DNA from: Cereibacter sphaeroides 2.4.1
GTDB lineage: Bacteria > Pseudomonadota > Alphaproteobacteria > Rhodobacterales > Rhodobacteraceae
Assembly (NCBI RefSeq): GCF_000012905.2
Contig: NC_007493.2
Coordinates: 840,001 to 872,000, forward strand
DNA length: 32,000 nt
Direction: 5' to 3'
In this document: piece by piece, positions 4,690 to 13,185 of the stretch
How the letters are laid out: each line of letters opens with the position of its first letter
Numbering within the stretch: the first letter of the stretch is position 1
Position numbers and translations under genes: made by a program
The notes under the pieces: model-generated
What the model saw: the letters and a program-made list of their open reading frames with translations, nothing else
The model's database searches: none
Told to the model about the DNA's origin: nothing

Positions 4690-7600
4690 ATGACGGAAAT
4701 GCTTTCCGCCGCCGAATCCGCGGCCGATCGCGACCTGGTCCTTCTCGGGATCGGGGCCTCGGCCGGCGGGCTGGAGGCGTTCCAGAGCCTGCTCGGTGCG
4801 CTGAGGCCCACCGACCGGTTCGCGCTGATCCTCGTGCAGCATCTCGATCCGGAACATGAAAGCCTGCTGCCCGAGCTTCTGTCCAAGCGCACGCGGCTGC
4901 CGGTGCAGTCCATCGAGGACGGAATGGAGATCGAGAGCGGCAACGTCTATCTCATCCCGCCGGCCTTCGGCCTCGACATCCGCGGCCGGGTCCTGAAGCT
5001 CGTGCCGTTCGAGGCGCCGCGGGGGCTGCGCCGGCCCATCGACAGCTTCTTCCAGGCGCTCGCGCGCGAGCATGGCAGCAATGCGGCGGGCGTGATCCTG
5101 TCGGGCACGGGATCGGACGGATCGAACGGCGTCCGGGCGATCAAGGAGGCGGGCGGTCTCGTCTTCGCGCAGGATCCCAAGGACGCCCGCTACGACGGGA
5201 TGCCCCGCTCGGCCATCGGCACGGGGGCGGTCGATCTCGTGCTGCCTGCGGCCGAGATGATCGGCGTGCTGCGCGATTTCCACGACCGCGCCTCGGGGAT
5301 CGCGCCGACCATCGAGAGCGACGCGGAGTTCATCGAGAAGGTGGTGCGCAACGTGCGCTACCGCACGGGCCACGACTTCTCCGGTTACAAGAGCGGCACG
5401 CTCCTCAGGCGAATCACGCTGCGCATGTCGGTGCTGGGGCTTACGGAGCCCGGCGACTATCTGCGCGAACTGGTGCAGAACCGGGGCGAGGCCGATCGGC
5501 TGTTCCGTGACCTGCTCATCAATGTCACCAGCTTCTTCCGCGACCCTGCGGCCTTCGACGCGCTGGCGCGGGTGGCGATCCCCGGGATCCTCGAGGAGAA
5601 GGGCCGCGGCGACGAGCTGCGGGTCTGGGTGCCGGGCTGTTCGACGGGGCAGGAGGCTTATACGGTCGCGATGATCCTCGCCGACGCGATGACGCGGCTC
5701 GACGTGCGTGCCCGGCTCTGCGTCTTCGGGACCGACATCGACGAGGATGCGCTCGCCATCGCGCGGCGGGCGCAATATCCCAATTCCATCGCCTCCGAGG
5801 TGCCGCCGCAGTTTCTCGAGCGCTACTTCACCCCCACCCGGCACGGTTTCGAGGTGCGCGGAGAGCTGCGCGACATGGTGCGCTTCTCGTCCCAGAGCCT
5901 CGTCAAGGATCCGCCCTTCTCCCGCCTCGACCTCATCACCTGCCGCAACCTGCTGATCTACTTCAATCACGAGCTGCAGGAGCTGGCGCAGCGCGTGTTT
6001 CACTACGCGCTCCGGCCCGGCGGTTTCCTGATGCTCGGCCCCTCCGAGACGGCCAAGGCCGAGGGCGACCCCTTCGTGAATGTGGTGCCCGAGCACCGGA
6101 TCTACCGGCGCAACGATGCGCTGGCGCGTTCGCTCGACCTGCCGCGCGGCTTCCGCAGCATCTCGCTTGCCTCCGAGGCAACGCACGATGCGCTGCCCGA
6201 GCAGATCTTCGGGCTGCCCTATGCCGCGGCCGAGGCGCTGGTCGTGCGCCATGTGCCGCCGTTCCTGCTCATCGGACCGCAGGACGAGGTGACGCGCGTG
6301 GGGGCGGGCGCCGAGAGGTTCGTGCGTCTCAATCCCGGCACCGCGTCGCTCGGCATCCGCGCCTTGATCCTTCCCGAGCTCGAGCAGCCGCTGAAGCGGC
6401 TTCTGACCGGAAGCGGGCTCGCCGGCGGCAGCTTCCGCCAGACACGGGTCGAGCTTTCCCGGGACGGAGAGGCGCAGGAGGTGACGATCGGCTGCGAGAC
6501 CCTGTCGAACGGTCTGCGTCTCGTGACCTTCGGCACCATCGCCAGCCCCTCCTCCGGCTCCGCCGCGGACCCCGACACGCGGATCGTGCTCGACGAGGCC
6601 TATGTGAGCCAGATCGAGGACGAGCTCGAGGAGGCGCGCCTGATGGTGCGCACCACGGTGGAGGAACTCGAGACGTCGAACGAGGAGCTGAAGAGCTCGA
6701 ACGAGGAAATGATGTCGATGAACGAGGAGCTCCAGTCGGCGAACGAGGAGCTCTCGACCACCAACGAGGAGCTGCAGACCAAGCTTGCCGAACTTGCCGA
6801 GGTCAATGCGGACCTCGCGAACTTCATGTCCTCCACCCAGATCGCGACCGTCTTCCTCGACCGCGAGCTGCGGTTGCGCTCCTTCACCCCCGAGGCCGCC
6901 ACCTGGTTCCGCTTCGTGGAGCAGGACCGCGGGCGCGAGATCACCGACATCCGCGCGCGTCTCGATATCGGGACCATCGCCGACGTCTGCCGTCGGGTGA
7001 TGGCGGAGGGCCCGGCCGAAGAGGTGGCGATGGTCTCGACCGATGGCGAGTCCGAGGTGATCGTGCGGTTCGCGCCCTATCGCAGCGGTTCGGGCGATCG
7101 GGGCGGGGTCGTCTTCTCGATCTTCGATGTGACCGCCGTCACCCGCTTCGCCCGCGCCGCCGAGGAGGCTTCGGCCGACGCCCGCGCCAGTGCCGAGGAA
7201 ATCGAGGAACTCTATCTCGGCAGTCCCGGCGCGATGGGCCTCGTCGACCGCGACTTCCGCTATCTGCGCGCCAATCCCAAGATGGCCGATTTCAGCGGCC
7301 TGCCCAATGAGAACCTCATCGGCCGGTCGATCTCGGAGGTCCATCCCGACGTGGCGGGGCGCATGGTGGCCTCGGTCCGCCGGGTGTTCGACAGCGGCGA
7401 GCCGGTGCTGCGGCAGGTGGTGCGCGGCACGACGCCCGCCGATCCCGACGTGCCGCGCGTCTGGGAGATCGACTGGTATCCCGTCCATCGCTCGGACGGG
7501 GTGCGGGCCGTGGGCTTCAACGTCACCGACGTGACCCGGCTTCTGGAACTTCAGGCCGACCTGCGCCGCATCATGCGCGAGCTGCAGCACCGGGTGAAGA

Positions 7601-8202
7601 ACATGCTTTCGAACGTGATCGCGCTGGTCAACCGGGCGCGGCGCGAGCAGGGCGACCCGCAGGAGATCCTCGAGACGCTGGCGCAGCGGATCCGGGCGCT
7701 CGCCAACACCCACAATCTGCTCACCTCGGAAAACTGGGCCTCGACCTCGCTCAGCGACATCTTCGCGCTCGAGCTTCTGAACGTCTATGGCGAGGAGCGG
7801 GTGACGCTCCGCGGCCCCGAGATGCGGCTCAACGCCCGCGCCACGCTGAGCCTCGGCATGGTGATCCATGAACTCGCCACCAACGCGTCGAAATACGGTG
7901 CCTTCTCGCGGCCCGAGGGGCGCGTGTCGGTGCGCTGGTCGCGGGTGGACGAGGGAGAAGGCGAGGAATTCCGTCTGGTGTGGCAGGAGAGCGGCGGTCC
8001 GGCGGTAAATCCGCCCTCGCGCGAGGGTTTCGGCACGCAATTGATGCGTTCGATGGTAGAGGGCTCCTTCTACGGCAGCATCGAGAGCAACTGGGAACCG
8101 GCCGGTCTTCGCCTCGTTGTGGCCCTGCCATGGAATGCAGCAACCGAAGTGGACTATGACAGTGACCTGGACCCCCTCCGCCATGCGGATCCTCTACCTT
8201 GA
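4690..8202 (+). CDS. Multidomain sensor: CheB-type methylesterase, CheR-type methyltransferase, coiled coil, PAS domains and an HWE-family histidine kinase
   Basis: CheB-like GIGASAGG, VQH and GTGSDG. CheR-like FFRD, VWVPGCSTGQEAYT and RNLLIYF. Six NEELxxx heptads. H-box LQHRVKNMLSN (His codon 7588-7590), N-box ELATNASKYGA, and the HWE signature VWQESGGP (7981-7989). Confidence 0.9.
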   Translation: MTEMLSAAESAADRDLVLLGIGASAGGLEAFQSLLGALRPTDRFALILVQHLDPEHESLLPELLSKRTRLPVQSIEDGMEIESGNVYLIPPAFGLDIRGRVLKLVPFEAPRGLRRPIDSFFQALAREHGSNAAGVILSGTGSDGSNGVRAIKEAGGLVFAQDPKDARYDGMPRSAIGTGAVDLVLPAAEMIGVLRDFHDRASGIAPTIESDAEFIEKVVRNVRYRTGHDFSGYKSGTLLRRITLRMSVLGLTEPGDYLRELVQNRGEADRLFRDLLINVTSFFRDPAAFDALARVAIPGILEEKGRGDELRVWVPGCSTGQEAYTVAMILADAMTRLDVRARLCVFGTDIDEDALAIARRAQYPNSIASEVPPQFLERYFTPTRHGFEVRGELRDMVRFSSQSLVKDPPFSRLDLITCRNLLIYFNHELQELAQRVFHYALRPGGFLMLGPSETAKAEGDPFVNVVPEHRIYRRNDALARSLDLPRGFRSISLASEATHDALPEQIFGLPYAAAEALVVRHVPPFLLIGPQDEVTRVGAGAERFVRLNPGTASLGIRALILPELEQPLKRLLTGSGLAGGSFRQTRVELSRDGEAQEVTIGCETLSNGLRLVTFGTIASPSSGSAADPDTRIVLDEAYVSQIEDELEEARLMVRTTVEELETSNEELKSSNEEMMSMNEELQSANEELSTTNEELQTKLAELAEVNADLANFMSSTQIATVFLDRELRLRSFTPEAATWFRFVEQDRGREITDIRARLDIGTIADVCRRVMAEGPAEEVAMVSTDGESEVIVRFAPYRSGSGDRGGVVFSIFDVTAVTRFARAAEEASADARASAEEIEELYLGSPGAMGLVDRDFRYLRANPKMADFSGLPNENLIGRSISEVHPDVAGRMVASVRRVFDSGEPVLRQVVRGTTPADPDVPRVWEIDWYPVHRSDGVRAVGFNVTDVTRLLELQADLRRIMRELQHRVKNMLSNVIALVNRARREQGDPQEILETLAQRIRALANTHNLLTSENWASTSLSDIFALELLNVYGEERVTLRGPEMRLNARATLSLGMVIHELATNASKYGAFSRPEGRVSVRWSRVDEGEGEEFRLVWQESGGPAVNPPSREGFGTQLMRSMVEGSFYGSIESNWEPAGLRLVVALPWNAATEVDYDSDLDPLRHADPLP
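6661..6786 (+). repeat. Six tandem 21-bp units inside the kinase CDS, encoding a heptad (EELxxxN) coiled coil
   Basis: Units start at 6661, 6682, 6703, 6724, 6745 and 6766, each beginning gaggaRMT. Translation is EELETSN EELKSSN EEMMSMN EELQSAN EELSTTN EELQTKL. Confidence 0.85.
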
Positions 8203-8536
8203 AGACGAAGCCATCATTGCGATGGAAACGGTGGAGACGCTGCGAGACATGGGGTTCGAGCAGATCGACATGGCCTACTCCCTGCCGGCGGCCGAAAAGT
8301 TCGTGGCCGAGGCACTGCCCGACATCGCCCTGCTCGACGTGAACCTGAGCCACGGGCGGACCTCGTTCGAGCTCGGAAGCCGCCTTCTGGGCGAGGGCGT
8401 GCCTGTCGTCTTCGCCACCGGCTATGCCAGTTCCAGCCTGCCGGCCGATCCCCGGGCGACCGTCATCGAGAAGCCGGTGACACCGGCCGCGCTGGAGCGC
8501 GCGCTGAACTCCGCCGCCTGCGCCTCCGAAGGCTGA
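8183..8536 (+). CDS. Single-domain response regulator (receiver only)
   Basis: 117 aa: MRILYLEDEAII..., a phosphoacceptor context IALLDVNL, then FATGY and EKP. The start is taken at the Met at 8183, which overlaps the kinase 3' end by 20 nt. The ORF-track start of 8117 adds non-receiver residues. Confidence 0.85.
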   Translation: MRILYLEDEAIIAMETVETLRDMGFEQIDMAYSLPAAEKFVAEALPDIALLDVNLSHGRTSFELGSRLLGEGVPVVFATGYASSSLPADPRATVIEKPVTPAALERALNSAACASEG

Positions 8537-8763: not shown

Positions 8764-9017
8764 TGGACCGGCTGAGCATCCTCCTCACCCTGATGACCGG
8801 AGCGGTCATCACGGGCGTCCTCGTGATCCTGTTCTTCAGCATGGGCTGGTATGGCTGGACCCCGATCGCCATCGGAGCAGGGGCCGGCATCCTCCTGTCG
8901 TGGCCGGCTGGCTACCTCATCTCGCGCCGGATCAAGCGCACCGACCCCCAATGGGACGAGAAGCGGGTCGAGCGGGTGCCCACCACGATCCCCAAGCCCG
9001 ACGCGCCGGAAGTTTAA
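8763..9017 (+). CDS. 84-aa two-pass membrane protein of unknown function
   Basis: MDRLSILLTLMTGAVITGVLVILFFSMGWYGWTPIAIGAGAGILLSWPAGYLISRRIKR... has two hydrophobic helices, high GC3, and an ATG coupled to the upstream micro-ORF. The longer 8577 start in the ORF track gives an Arg/Pro/Gly-rich extension that does not look coding. Confidence 0.7.
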   Translation: MDRLSILLTLMTGAVITGVLVILFFSMGWYGWTPIAIGAGAGILLSWPAGYLISRRIKRTDPQWDEKRVERVPTTIPKPDAPEV

Positions 9018-9078
9018 AAGCGTCTCAGGACGCTCCTGTTCCGAAGCCGTGGCGGACCACCCCTGGCCGAGATCATGA

Positions 9079-9104
9079 GGGGCGCAGCAGCGCCCCTTGG
9101 TTTT
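9079..9104 (+). terminator. Rho-independent terminator
   Basis: GGGGCGC (9079-9085), loop agca, GCGCCCC (9090-9096), then TTGGTTTT. Confidence 0.65.
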
Positions 9105-9411
9105 GGCGCCTCGAAGGGGCTTCTGGGCGCGGCCGGCCACCTCTCCAGATCGCGCCGCGGACCGGATCTGCCGACAGGGAGGCGCGGGCGGTCCTTCAGC
9201 ATCGACTTTTTCCCGCGGGCACCGGCTCCAGCCAGAGCCCGGAGTCCTTCCTCCCAACACCGTCTTGCATCCGATTGCCCGGCAGAGGTTCCGCAGCCTT
9301 GCGCTTCGCCGAGGCCTGCGAGGTTCCCGCAGGGAGAAACTTCAGGCAGGACCCTCGTGTTCCCGCGATACCGGCGTCAGTCACGCAGCGCGGATCGACG
9401 CGCGGAATCGA

Positions 9412-10869
9412 TCAGTCCAGACGCTCCAGCAGCTGTCGGGCCGCCTGAAGATCGTCCCGGAACCGCCTGCGCTCCTCGACGCGCGCGGCCTCGTCCGGCA
9501 GGCGCAGGATGTAGGAGGGATGGACCGTCACGAAGACCGGCGTCCCGTCGTCGAGCCTCTCGACCGACCCGCGCCGCTTCAGGATCCCCGCCCCCGAGCC
9601 GGTGAGCGAGGCGAGCGCCGTTGCGCCCATCGCGACGATCAGGCGGGGGCGCACCAGATCCCGCTCGAGATCGAGCCACCAGCGGCAGGCGGTCACCTCG
9701 CCCGCATCGGGCTTCTGGTGGATGCGGCGCTTGCCGCGTGGGGCGAACTTGAAGTGCTTGACCGCATTGGTGACATAGACCGATCCGCGATCGAGGCCGG
9801 CCGCTGCCGCCTCCTCATCGAAGAGCTGTCCTGCAGGGCCCACGAAGGGCCGGCCGGCCAGATCCTCGCGATCCCCCGGCTGCTCGCCCACGATCATCAT
9901 GCGCGCCGTGGCGGGTCCTTCCCCGAACACGACCTGCGTGGCATTGGCCCAGAGGCCGCAGCGCCGGCATCCTTCGGCCGCGGTCTTCGCTTCGGCCAAC
10001 GTGCCGGGCGCTGAGCCGTCGCCGGCCGCAGCCGGTCCGCCGGCCGCCGCCGCACGCTGCCGCGCCACGGCCGCCGTTCGCGCGGGCGGCTCGGTCGGCG
10101 CTGCGGCCTGCATCTCGGCCGCCCGTTCGGCCGCACCCCGGATCAGGCCCGGAATCAGCTCCGCCTCGGGCAGGTTCTTCCAGTAGCGTTTCGGCATCTC
10201 GGACTGCATCGCCTTCACCATCAGCCGCGCCGGATTGAAGATGTTGGCGTAATAGGTCCGCCACAGCTCTTCCGTTCCATCGGCGGGTGGCGCGGTGCGC
10301 TCCTCGGTCAGGGCGAAATCGAGCTGCCCTGCCACGAACCGCGCGGTAACCTCGGGCGTGACGATGGCCCAGTCCATGTCGCCGAACCGGCGGGCGAAGA
10401 AGGGCGTCGCCGCCTCCTCGACCGGATGGTCCGGCTCGAACCAGGCCGCGAAGGCGCGGCGGGGGCCCTCCGAGGGAAGCTCGCGGAAGCGGACGAAGGC
10501 GTGCATCTTGTGGATCTCGCGCCGAACCATCTTCTCCTGCGCAAGGAGCTTGCGCAGCGCGGGATCGCTCCGGTCGCCCCAGCGCAAAGTGCCGTCCGCC
10601 AGCCGCAGGAGAAGACCGTAGGCACGGCCGAACCGCTCGGGATCGGCGTGGCAGAGGGCAGTTTCCAATGAGCCGACCGCCTCGCGCGACAGCCGGATCT
10701 GGCGCGCCGGGCCCGCGGGCAGGGCGGGCAGGTCGGCAAAAAGGTCGGCTTCGCCCGCGCCCACGCGCCAGACGACGCTTTCCGCCGGAACACCCGCCTG
10801 CGCCAGCCGCCGGGCCTCGGCGCGCCAGGCCGCCACGGTTCCCAGACGCGGCAGGACCACCTCGGGCAT
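9412..10869 (-). CDS. Fusion protein: N-terminal DUF4130 / TIGR03915-like domain and C-terminal family-4 uracil-DNA glycosylase of the UdgX type
   Basis: 485 aa. The C-terminal half has CRRCGLW, motif A VGEQPGDREDL (GEQPG at 9874-9888), FVGPAG, KHFKF..RGKRRIHQKP (KRRIH at 9718-9732) and motif B HPSYILR. The ATG shares one nt with the upstream radical-SAM stop. Confidence 0.85.
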   Translation of the reverse strand: MPEVVLPRLGTVAAWRAEARRLAQAGVPAESVVWRVGAGEADLFADLPALPAGPARQIRLSREAVGSLETALCHADPERFGRAYGLLLRLADGTLRWGDRSDPALRKLLAQEKMVRREIHKMHAFVRFRELPSEGPRRAFAAWFEPDHPVEEAATPFFARRFGDMDWAIVTPEVTARFVAGQLDFALTEERTAPPADGTEELWRTYYANIFNPARLMVKAMQSEMPKRYWKNLPEAELIPGLIRGAAERAAEMQAAAPTEPPARTAAVARQRAAAAGGPAAAGDGSAPGTLAEAKTAAEGCRRCGLWANATQVVFGEGPATARMMIVGEQPGDREDLAGRPFVGPAGQLFDEEAAAAGLDRGSVYVTNAVKHFKFAPRGKRRIHQKPDAGEVTACRWWLDLERDLVRPRLIVAMGATALASLTGSGAGILKRRGSVERLDDGTPVFVTVHPSYILRLPDEAARVEERRRFRDDLQAARQLLERLD

Positions 10870-12089
10870 CAGAAGAGGCTCAACTGTTCCGGCGGCGGCA
10901 CGAAGCGCGCGCGCAGGCTGGCGTCGTCCAGCCCCTGCGGCCGCCAGCCGGGGGCCACGATGAAGGGGCGCGCCTGTTTCACCACCGCGCCCATCGCCAC
11001 CAGATGCTCGTAGCGCACCGCCCCGTGCGCCCGCGCGGCAAGGATGCGGCCCACCGTCTTGGTGCCGAAGCCCGGCACGCGCAGCAGCATCTCGCGCGGG
11101 GCGCGGTTCACATCCATCGGAAAGGCCTCGCGATGCGCCAGCGCCCAGGCGAGCTTCGGATCGACCTCGAGATCGAGCATCCCCTTGTCCGCGATCTCGC
11201 CCACCTCGAAGCCGTAGAACCGCAGGAGCCAGTCCGCCTGATAGAGCCGATGCTCGCGCAGGAGCGGCGGACGCACGAGGGGCAGCGCCTTCGAGGCATC
11301 GGGAATGGGCGAGAAGGCCGAGTAATAGACCCGGCTCAGACCGTAGTTGGCATAGAGCGTCGAGGCATTGCCGAGGATGGCTGCATCGTCCGCCCCGTCC
11401 GCTCCCACGATCATCTGCGTGGACTGGCCCGCGGGCGCGAAGCGCGAGGGTCTGCGGCCGGAGAAGCTCGGCTCGCGCGAGGCCTCGCGCTTCAGCCGCA
11501 CCTCGGCCATCGCCTTGCGGATGCCGGTGGCCGACTTCTCCGGCGCGAAGCGGTCGAGCCCGGCTTCGGTCGGCAGCTCCACATTGATCGACAGCCGGTC
11601 GGCATAGAGGCCCGCCTGCTCGATCAGCTCGGGCGCGGCGTCGGGAATGGTCTTGAGGTGGATATAGCCCCGGAAATGCTCGCGCTCGCGCAGGGTCTTG
11701 GCGATGCGCACCATGTCGGCCATCGTGTCATCGGGCGAGCGGATGATGCCCGACGAGAGGAAGAGCCCCTCGATATAGTTCCGCCGGTAGAATTCGACGG
11801 TGAGCGTCACCACCTCTTCGACCGAGAACCGCGCCCGCTCGACCCGCGAGGAGACGCGGTTCACGCAATAGGCGCAGTCGAAGATGCAGAAATTGGTCAT
11901 CAGGATCTTCAGAAGGCTGATGCAGCGCCCGTCCGGCGCATAGGCGTGGCAGATGCCGCTTCCGCCCGAGGATCCCAGCCCCTTGCCATCCTTCGAATCG
12001 CGCCGTGTGCCCCCGCTCGAGGCGCAGGAGGCATCGTATTTCGCGGCGTCCGACAGGATAGCCAGCTTGCGGGCGAGGTCTTTCTTCAT
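10869..12089 (-). CDS. Putative DNA modification/repair radical SAM protein (TIGR03916-like) with a C-terminal helix-hairpin-helix
   Basis: 406 aa. N-terminus LAILSDAAKYDASCASSGG, radical SAM CIFDCAYC (CX3CX2C, 11865-11888), and an HhH-like LLRVPGFGTKTVGRILAAR near the C-terminus. Confidence 0.85.
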   Translation of the reverse strand: MKKDLARKLAILSDAAKYDASCASSGGTRRDSKDGKGLGSSGGSGICHAYAPDGRCISLLKILMTNFCIFDCAYCVNRVSSRVERARFSVEEVVTLTVEFYRRNYIEGLFLSSGIIRSPDDTMADMVRIAKTLREREHFRGYIHLKTIPDAAPELIEQAGLYADRLSINVELPTEAGLDRFAPEKSATGIRKAMAEVRLKREASREPSFSGRRPSRFAPAGQSTQMIVGADGADDAAILGNASTLYANYGLSRVYYSAFSPIPDASKALPLVRPPLLREHRLYQADWLLRFYGFEVGEIADKGMLDLEVDPKLAWALAHREAFPMDVNRAPREMLLRVPGFGTKTVGRILAARAHGAVRYEHLVAMGAVVKQARPFIVAPGWRPQGLDDASLRARFVPPPEQLSLF

Positions 12090-12091
12090 CT

Positions 12092-12116
12092 GTTCTTAAT
12101 ATGTTCCTAGCTGTTC
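12092..12116 (-). promoter_or_regulatory. Alphaproteobacterial LexA (SOS) box, GTTC-N7-GTTC, plus a third GTTC
   Basis: GTTC at 12092-12095, ttaatat, then GTTC at 12103-12106 form a perfect direct-repeat SOS box. It reads GAAC-N7-GAAC in gene orientation. A third GTTC lies at 12113-12116 after 6 nt. The box starts 2 nt upstream of the radical-SAM ATG. Confidence 0.7.
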
Positions 12117-12124
12117 GAAAGCAA
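12096..12124 (-). promoter_or_regulatory. Sigma70-like promoter for the radical-SAM/UdgX operon, positioned for a leaderless transcript
   Basis: On the minus strand, TTGCTT (12124-12119), a 17-nt spacer, then TATTAA (12101-12096). Only 6 nt (GAACAG) separate the -10 from the ATG at 12089, and there is no Shine-Dalgarno. Confidence 0.5.
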
Positions 12125-12171
12125 GCGCAGAACCAATCATGACCGGAACGTGAAGCAGCGGCGGGCCCTCT

Positions 12172-13185
12172 TCAGGCGCGCCTTAGCTCCGGGGCAACCA
12201 CCTCGCCGATCAGCCGCATCAGGTCGCCGAAATAGCCTTCGCTCCGGGCGGGCCGCGTCGGGTCGGAGGTGACGACCACCGTGGCCTCGAGATCGGGCAG
12301 GAGGCAGACGAGCTGGCCGCCGTAGCCGCGGGCCAGTGCGATCCGCTCGGTGCCCGCGCGGCCCACGAACCAGCCGTAGCCGTAGCCCAAGCCCGAGAAG
12401 GGCGAGCGCGTCCGCGGCTCGAGCGAACGGCGCACCCAGTCGGCGGACAGGACCTGCTCCCCGTCCCACCGGCCGCCCTGGCGGACCATCTCTCCGAAGC
12501 GCAGCAGCGCCAGAGGCGACAGCGCCATTTCGTTGCCGCCGAGGTAGAAGCCCTGCGGATCCTGCGTCCAGGGCGGGATCTCGATCCCGAGCGGGCGGCC
12601 GAGCCAGTCCCGCATCAGCGCGAGCAGGCTGCGGTCCGTGGCTTCGGAGAGGGCGGCGCCGAGGATGTGGAAGCTGCCCGTGGAATAGAGCATCCGGCTG
12701 CCCGGCTCGGCCACCATCGGGCGCGACAGGGCATAGGCCAGCCAGTTCCGGCTCGAGACCCAGGCGCCGTAGTTGCCGCCCGAGGTGCGTTCGAGCCCCG
12801 CGCGCATCGTCACCAGATCCTCGAGCGTCAGGTCCCGGACGCGGGGGTCGGCCTCGGCAGGGATGAGGCCGGGCGCGACCTCGCCCAGCGTGGCCCCGAG
12901 GGCGGGCACGGCGCCCCGGTCGAGCGCCGCGCCGAGCAGGGCTGCGACGAGCGTCTTCGAGACTGACTTCACATTGACCGCGCGATCCGGAGCGGGTCCG
13001 CGCAGCGCCTCGGCCACCAGCGTTTCGCCGCCCTGCGCGACGACGATCGCATGAAGCTGGTCAAGCCCGCGCGCGGCTTCCAGCGTGGCGGCAAGGGGCG
13101 GACGGCGCGGCGCCTGCGCGCGGAGGGCGCTAGGCAGGGCGAGCGCGGCGCCGGCCGCGAGAAGAAGACGGCGGGACAGGATCAT
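12172..13185 (-). CDS. Secreted serine hydrolase of the beta-lactamase / PBP (class C-like) family
   Basis: Signal peptide [25 protein letters not shown] and an S-x-x-K motif (KSVSKT). GGAGG lies 5 nt upstream of the ATG at 13185, so that start is preferred over 13212. Confidence 0.8.
   Translation of the reverse strand: MILSRRLLLAAGAALALPSALRAQAPRRPPLAATLEAARGLDQLHAIVVAQGGETLVAEALRGPAPDRAVNVKSVSKTLVAALLGAALDRGAVPALGATLGEVAPGLIPAEADPRVRDLTLEDLVTMRAGLERTSGGNYGAWVSSRNWLAYALSRPMVAEPGSRMLYSTGSFHILGAALSEATDRSLLALMRDWLGRPLGIEIPPWTQDPQGFYLGGNEMALSPLALLRFGEMVRQGGRWDGEQVLSADWVRRSLEPRTRSPFSGLGYGYGWFVGRAGTERIALARGYGGQLVCLLPDLEATVVVTSDPTRPARSEGYFGDLMRLIGEVVAPELRRA

Follow-up and report, generated by a model that had tools for sequence, protein, structure and literature searches.

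A predicted SOS-controlled operon for a radical-SAM protein and a DUF4130-UdgX fusion protein in Cereibacter sphaeroides 2.4.1

The 32,000-nucleotide (nt) stretch of Cereibacter sphaeroides 2.4.1 analyzed in this work (contig NC_007493.2, positions 840,001 to 872,000; hereafter “the window”, numbered from its first letter) carries, on the minus strand, a two-gene operon preceded by a perfect LexA box. The first gene encodes a radical S-adenosylmethionine (radical-SAM) protein, and the second a protein in which a DUF4130 domain is fused to a uracil-DNA glycosylase (UDG) domain of the UdgX type. The features are given below in the order in which they are read; residues are numbered in amino acids (aa) of the respective protein, and “MsmUdgX” is the UdgX of Mycobacterium smegmatis (MSMEG_0265).

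12092..12106, minus strand: alphaproteobacterial LexA (SOS) box GAACATATTAAGAAC, GTTC-N7-GTTC on the plus strand, perfect match
10869..12089, minus strand: TIGR03916 radical-SAM gene, 406 aa, first in the operon (NCBIfam, 595.8 bits vs. a cut-off of 343.5)
11865..11888, minus strand: CX3CX2C cluster motif CIFDCAYC of the radical-SAM protein (C68, C72, C75), from the sequence
11016..11114, minus strand: helix-hairpin-helix-like DNA-binding segment of the radical-SAM protein, aa 326-358, ...LLRVPGFGTKTVGRILAAR... (weak Pfam match)
9412..10869, minus strand: DUF4130-UdgX fusion gene, ATG start, 485 aa
10162..10842, minus strand: N-terminal TIGR03915/DUF4130 domain, aa 10-236 (profile matches and structure model)
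9979..10161, minus strand: Ala/Pro-rich linker, aa 237-297, ~60 aa, low-confidence (sequence and structure model)
9439..10005, minus strand: UdgX-type uracil-DNA glycosylase domain, aa 289-477 (NCBIfam, phmmer, Foldseek)
9958..9969, minus strand: CRRC, with C301 and C304 equivalent to the Fe-S ligands C24 and C27 of MsmUdgX (alignment)
9874..9888, minus strand: motif A GEQPG, G328-G332, with E329 and Q330 equivalent to E52 and Q53 of MsmUdgX (alignment)
9718..9732, minus strand: R-loop KRRIH, K380-H384, with H384 equivalent to the crosslinking H109 (alignment)
9685-9687, minus strand: third conserved Cys, C395 (alignment)
9502..9522, minus strand: motif B HPSYILR, with H450 equivalent to H178 and R456 to R184 (alignment)

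The domain identities of the fusion protein and the structure of the operon are practically beyond doubt. The N-terminal half belonged to the TIGR03915/DUF4130 family, as the original prediction, a model's note made from the letters of the window alone, had proposed: the TIGR03915 model matched aa 10-236 with 172.8 bits (cut-off 112.25, NCBIfam), and Pfam placed DUF4130 at aa 91-235 (E = 5.8e-36; 124.2 bits vs. a cut-off of 27). The C-terminal half was a family-4 UDG of the UdgX type, also as proposed. It matched the TIGR03914 model, “UdgX family uracil-DNA binding protein”, at aa 238-476 with 331.7 bits (cut-off 189.95, NCBIfam), more than a protein 97% identical to MsmUdgX (240.5 bits), and the Pfam UDG domain lay at aa 315-474 (E = 1.1e-32).

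The full-length model made with AlphaFold 2 (AF2) had a mean predicted local distance difference test score (pLDDT) of 81.8 and a predicted template-modeling score (pTM) of 0.52; pLDDT was mostly above 90 in aa 1-200 and in the UDG domain, and 44-63 over aa 201-290. The UDG domain showed the family-4-like alpha/beta/alpha fold, its best PDB matches by Foldseek being UdgX crystal structures (E ~1e-19; template-modeling (TM) score for the target 0.83-0.92), and matches of the full-length model to PDB folds were confined to this domain. Fold and Fe-S cluster region are shared with the family-4 UDGs proper (UdgA; Thermus thermophilus 1ui0, Thermotoga maritima 1l9g; E = 5.5e-31, TM ~0.88), but these have GE(A/G)PG in motif A, lack the KRRIH loop and turn over (PMC10359453), and the window protein stayed just under the cut-off of the family-4 subfamily model (124.7 vs. 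125.3 bits, NCBIfam).

The residues on which UdgX chemistry depends were conserved. Entries for MsmUdgX (6ajo, 6ail, 6iod and others) matched aa 289-477 in a phmmer search of PDB sequences (E ~4e-52, ~50% identity), the alignment pairing KRRIH with KRRIH, GEQPGDRED with GEQPGDKED and HPSYILR with HPSSLLR; matches this strong cannot be put down to chance. When ten mycobacterial and six fused homologues were aligned by MAFFT, the register was the same, with K380-H384 on K105-H109. The KRRIH motif reported earlier at 9718-9732 was thus found at that position and, column for column, in the R-loop of UdgX and not outside it; motif A, reported as GEQPGDRED at 9874-9888, was present, but these coordinates encode GEQPG alone and the full motif spans 9862-9888. 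Motif A had the Gln that takes the place of Ala/Gly in UdgX proteins, and motif B agreed with HPS(S/A)(L/V)(L/V)R in its His, Pro, Ser and Arg, with Tyr and Ile, typical of the fused clade, at positions 4-5. Alanine mutants of MsmUdgX at E52, D59, F65, N91, K94, R107, H109 and H178 are inactive or impaired (PMC10776899), and mutagenesis showed that R184 is also needed (PMC10359453); the equivalents E329, D336, F342, N368, K371, R382, H384, H450 and R456 were all present. These essential residues were invariant in 57 fused homologues (60-93% identity), except for F342 (= F65), which was at least 90% conserved; Q330 was invariant across the same homologues. The R-loop had a pLDDT below 50 in the AF2 model, consistent with a flexible loop. 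Only three cysteines (C301, C304 and C395; 9685-9969, minus strand) were shared by the fused and the solo UdgX domains, though family-4 UDGs are described as 4Fe-4S proteins.

The window protein resembles MsmUdgX in its glycosylase domain, GEQPG, the KRRIH His, the motif B His and Arg, the three Fe-S Cys and TIGR03914 membership, and by homology its UdgX domain is likely to crosslink to uracil-DNA. Proteins of the MsmUdgX type, however, are solo proteins of ~210 aa, whereas the window protein adds a 236-aa DUF4130 domain and a linker, a radical-SAM operon and a LexA box; it also differs in a pre-loop segment shorter by 2 aa, in Gln for K110 and in HPSYILR for HPSSLLR.

The partner gene directly upstream encodes a protein that also matched Pfam Radical_SAM (E = 6e-8). 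The HHH_3 and HHH_5 matches in its putative DNA-binding segment were weak (E ~0.01, below the Pfam gathering score); an HHH_3 domain has been reported in a homologue (bioRxiv 10.64898/2026.08.19.745780). The radical-SAM stop codon, TGA, overlaps the ATG of the fusion gene by 1 nt (TGATG), so that the TIGR03915 protein adjoins a TIGR03916 gene as its family definition has it, and this overlap suggests that the fusion gene is probably translationally coupled to the radical-SAM gene. The original prediction had named a radical-SAM pairing from TIGRFAMs only; the partner was indeed there, while its adjacency and the LexA box had been missed. Spore photoproduct lyase (SplB) is likewise a radical-SAM DNA-repair enzyme, and the partner has loosely been called “SplB-like” (PMC3765255). 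This label was unsupported, because a search of PDB sequences with the radical-SAM protein returned no chain at E <=0.01, spore photoproduct lyase included; SplB is COG1533, and the partner COG4277 (PMC8565304).

The direct repeat GTTC-N7-GTTC is the LexA motif of Alphaproteobacteria (PMC3323433). In the window, the box ended 2 nt before the radical-SAM ATG, within an upstream region of 82 nt, and a third GAAC lay at 12112-12115 with N6 spacing. Scanning the genomes of species representatives gave 80 related loci, nearly all from Alphaproteobacteria. Of the 50 operons in which the box could be looked for, 49 had a perfect GAAC-N7-GAAC between -200 and +20 of the radical-SAM start, mostly at -20 (consensus GAACATATnnTGAAC), as against 0.005 expected per 220 nt from a background of 12 perfect boxes in 506,703 nt, and SOS control of the operon is therefore strongly supported. 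The operon is very likely to be under the predicted LexA control, in agreement with published work: the two-gene operon COG1573-COG4277 is LexA-regulated in Bacteroidetes (PMC8565304), and earlier reports cited in the same paper described LexA regulation of the UDG-radical-SAM operon for Verrucomicrobia and Alphaproteobacteria. The radical-SAM and TIGR03915 genes of Acinetobacter also belong to a damage response, under a different regulator, the WYL activator DdaA (PMC12392091).

The gap between the LexA box and the ATG leaves no space for a Shine-Dalgarno sequence, and a TTGCTT-N17-TATTAA element seen by eye overlaps the box (12090-12125, minus strand). Such an element would give an mRNA that is leaderless or nearly so, and LexA on its box would block access to the -10 element. 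In three of the loci (L050, L079 and L081, from Bradyrhizobium and an uncultured alphaproteobacterial metagenome-assembled genome), the 15-mer box was reversed (GTTCATGATATGTTC) and stood ~90 nt upstream of the radical-SAM start (vs. -20), perhaps because the start site differs or because a divergent promoter is shared. The 32-kb window held two perfect LexA boxes; the other one (5467-5481), inside a CheB/CheR gene, was taken as a chance occurrence.

The two domains were fused in one open reading frame in 56 of the 80 loci and split in 3, and the remaining 21 had a solo UdgX. Wherever the upstream sequence was available, the fusion had the radical-SAM gene immediately before it, with two exceptions. 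The closest database matches of the window protein were Cereibacter (Rhodobacter) sphaeroides proteins, with 97% identity, which NCBI names “UdgX family uracil-DNA binding protein”, and the DUF4130+UDG architecture was present in all of the best 120 of at least 8000 matches. The novelty implied by the original prediction did not hold up against these matches: the fusion protein is already known, as an annotated type in the source species and as a widespread fusion, and curated databases or papers already contained its family, its fusion, its linkage to radical SAM and its SOS regulation.

The 21 solo UdgX genes (L004, L015, L026, L029, L030, L032, L033, L043, L053, L059, L061-L064, L068, L070, L071, L077, L078, L080 and L082) encoded proteins of ~205-290 aa; 20 were from Alphaproteobacteria and one from a Terriglobia genome. 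None had a radical-SAM or DUF4130 gene within 5 kb, 3 had a perfect LexA box within 250 nt upstream (L033, L061 and L063), and some came from genera in which the fused operon is found as well (Mesorhizobium, Bradyrhizobium). In a neighbor-joining tree of UdgX domains (187 columns, no support values), the alphaproteobacterial solo forms were scattered among the fused ones and the actinobacterial solo forms made up their own clade, a pattern suggestive of solo UdgX having arisen repeatedly. In M. mageritense (three assemblies), whose UdgX is a close relative of the prototype, the genes next to UdgX were those for a catalase, a hydrolase and a MarR regulator; radical-SAM and DUF4130 genes were absent from this neighborhood, as was a LexA box of the Gram-positive type.

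The DUF4130 domain was followed beyond these loci by a search of 1.84 billion cluster representatives, which gave 1901 relatives at E <=1e-3. Among the best 150 of these 1901, 72 had a UDG domain, nearly all of them with GEQPG and an xRR(I/L)H loop, ~60 were short enough to consist of DUF4130 alone (some possibly being fragments), and 3 were fused to DUF72 instead of UDG (P0283, 626 aa; P0305, 705 aa; P0322, 655 aa; Pfam E = 1e-44 to 7e-55). DUF72 has been computationally predicted to be endonuclease-IV-like (PMC3828134). The occurrence of DUF4130 alone, with UDG or with DUF72 suggests a constant partner of the radical-SAM enzyme, that is, an adaptor that would carry exchangeable abasic-site or lesion modules. 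An AlphaFold 3 model of the complex of DUF4130 with the radical-SAM protein had an ipSAE of 0.80 and a large interface (bioRxiv 10.64898/2026.08.19.745780), and from this model by others, together with the gene fusion and adjacency, such a complex is reasonably likely. The N-terminal domain modeled alone gave weak fold matches, all to DHH/DHHA1 (RecJ-like) proteins (E >=0.01, TM <=0.34). None of the DHH-type catalytic residues is conserved in DUF4130, for which a binding role has been argued (bioRxiv 10.64898/2026.08.19.745780). Many His, Asp, Glu, Arg and Lys residues of the domain were invariant in the 57 homologues, e.g., H74, D99, H120, K121, H123, E152 and D164.

On balance, these observations lead us to favor an SOS-induced complex in which UdgX captures uracil or apurinic/apyrimidinic (AP) sites and DUF4130 docks the radical-SAM enzyme. 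The LexA-repressed operon, of a known and widespread two-gene type, would be switched on when DNA damage makes LexA leave the box overlapping the promoter/start region, and the radical-SAM and fusion proteins would be made together. The UdgX domain would then flip out a uracil in single- or double-stranded DNA and cut its glycosidic bond, and His384 of the KRRIH loop would attack C1' of the abasic sugar, so that the protein would become covalently attached and the site be capped, not exposed. The DUF4130 adaptor would dock the radical-SAM/helix-hairpin-helix enzyme, whose chemistry would be delivered to, or held at, the DNA site; its action on the DNA or on the adduct, be it lesion repair, adduct resolution or base modification, is speculative. 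A further-reaching version, which we consider doubtful, would make the UdgX-DNA adduct a programmed intermediate, not a dead end, that either anchors radical chemistry at uracil/abasic sites or is reversed by the radical-SAM enzyme at its His-C1' bond, making UdgX catalytic; the form tied through DUF4130 to the radical-SAM enzyme and co-induced by damage would be the usual native state of UdgX, and the solo mycobacterial UdgX a decoupled derivative. If this were true, the much-studied solo mycobacterial UdgX would have hidden the real pathway.

Several points weigh against an SOS-induced capture complex. In mechanistic terms, it is odd that a suicide reaction, which is stoichiometric, should be fused to a partner that works catalytically, and the full-length AF2 model predicted no fixed contact between the two domains of the fusion protein (pTM 0.52). 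Two of the fusions, L072 (1361-2839) and L074 (4142-5545), had neither an adjacent radical-SAM gene nor a LexA box within 300 nt upstream, and are exceptions to the rule that the domain is “always paired” with a radical-SAM protein. The shorter pre-R-loop segment and the Gln for K110, which distinguish the fused clade from the prototype, could alter the loop geometry, and a simple scan of 9000-12400 for consensus promoters and terminators found nothing. Finally, a literature search found no crosslinking assay on a protein known to be fused; the UdgX of B. diazoefficiens that was assayed, Bll3023, may be either the fused protein or a solo paralogue.

The same evidence was weighed for four other explanations. 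UdgX may act as an abasic-site shield only, in the manner of the solo mycobacterial protein and, functionally, of SRAP/HMCES/YedK, capping sites in replication stress until RecA-dependent repair or proteolysis takes over, with an unrelated reaction of the radical-SAM/DUF4130 pair and with co-regulation as the sole reason for the fusion. Protection of AP sites resolved by RecA pathways or proteases has been proposed by the Varshney group (PMC10359453), and radical-SAM repair genes share an SOS gene-neighborhood network with SRAP and ImuB-C (PMC3765255); UdgX genes that stand alone are common and do their work without partners, and the long, flexible linker, with no inter-domain contact predicted by AF2, also fits. 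Against this, fusion in 56 of the 59 loci having both domains and the tight adjacency of the radical-SAM gene argue for physical coupling, as does the large DUF4130-radical-SAM interface predicted elsewhere (bioRxiv 10.64898/2026.08.19.745780), and a pure shield appears rather unlikely. The probability is smaller, and low, that the operon serves SOS-linked DNA modification or mutagenesis, in which a DUF4130 enzyme and the radical-SAM protein would modify pyrimidines and the UDG domain would process the product. DUF4130 has been called [quoted passage not shown] (PMC3765255), and the many invariant residues of the N-terminal domain (H74, D99, H120, K121, H123, E152, D164) count in its favor, but the lack of any conserved DHH-type catalytic residue (bioRxiv 10.64898/2026.08.19.745780), the weakness of the DHH fold matches (E >=0.01, TM <=0.34) and the reported uracil specificity of MsmUdgX (PMC10359453) speak against it.

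An ordinary turnover family-4 UDG that starts base-excision repair in the SOS response, its KRRIH loop not crosslinking in the fused clade, is slightly less probable still. The SOS literature does call the operon a UDG-based base-excision repair system (PMC8565304), and substitutions of H109 turn MsmUdgX into a conventional UDG (PMC10359453), so that small changes matter and the 2 aa missing before the loop might count; yet His384, Glu329, Gln330 and Arg382 were invariant in the fused clade, and the window domain scored higher on the UdgX model than the 97% relative of MsmUdgX (331.7 vs. 240.5 bits). Anti-phage defense against uracil-DNA phages is extremely improbable: the idea that phages of this kind would be poisoned when their uracil-DNA is captured covalently is thought alone, and the conserved LexA box and the housekeeping and signaling genes around the operon point elsewhere. 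Defense and phage readings were rejected because neither the radical-SAM nor the fusion protein had a match in PADLOC or PHROGs.

Covalent capture of abasic sites, tied to SOS or replication stress, is also known from the SRAP/HMCES/YedK proteins. The analogy with the window protein is functional only: the folds are unrelated, and the SRAP-type proteins form a thiazolidine through an N-terminal Cys, whereas the window protein is predicted to form a His-C1' link after its own base excision. DUF4130 is mentioned in the SOS gene-neighborhood survey of an SRAP analysis (PMC3765255). The SOS UDG-radical-SAM operon described by the Erill/Barbe groups (COG1573-COG4277; TIGR03914/03915/03916) has the same families, gene order and LexA control, and the window is one instance of it; the papers on that operon treated it as a putative base-excision repair system, without a link to UdgX crosslinking, and the window is not different in kind.

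UdgX is toxic in ung- strains. It is widely employed to map uracil, in base editors and to conjugate DNA with protein, and its cellular role has been described as “largely unknown” (PMC10359453). This matches the original prediction, which had called the role of the fusion and of a crosslinking glycosylase unresolved, as does a recent preprint (bioRxiv 10.64898/2026.08.19.745780). A literature search for “UdgX” together with “radical SAM” retrieved no paper, and the UdgX biochemistry literature, as searched, mentioned neither the fusion, the operon, radical SAM nor SOS; the UdgX biochemistry and SOS regulon literatures, within these searches, ignore each other's findings. Combining the chemistry of UdgX with its SOS/radical-SAM context leads to concrete experiments on a glycosylase that is predicted to be induced by damage, to crosslink itself and to be tethered to a radical-SAM enzyme. 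The window locus is one ordinary, annotated instance in a genetically tractable organism, with nothing new in kind. A close mycobacterial relative of the studied prototype is without the partners that most of the sampled alphaproteobacterial homologues have, which is worth an experiment and would not surprise a specialist.

Ten loci from Sphingomonadaceae (L010, L016, L031, L034, L037, L041, L052, L054, L056 and L058) had a gene for a hemerythrin (HHE cation-binding) protein between the radical-SAM and fusion genes (L031: 3506-4123, plus strand; Pfam E = 3.4e-16; 46-60% identity among loci). Since both partner proteins carry Fe-S clusters, this hemerythrin might conceivably shield or mend them, or act as an oxygen sensor.

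The other neighbors of the operon in the window were unrelated to it: glycogen genes, a CheB-CheR-PAS-HWE kinase, a response regulator, a beta-lactamase-family protein and a MarR regulator. The kinase gene (4690-8202, plus strand) encodes a single polypeptide of 1170 aa that joins a CheB methylesterase, a CheR methyltransferase, two PAS domains and an HWE histidine kinase, and its end is overlapped by the small response-regulator gene (8117-8536, plus strand).

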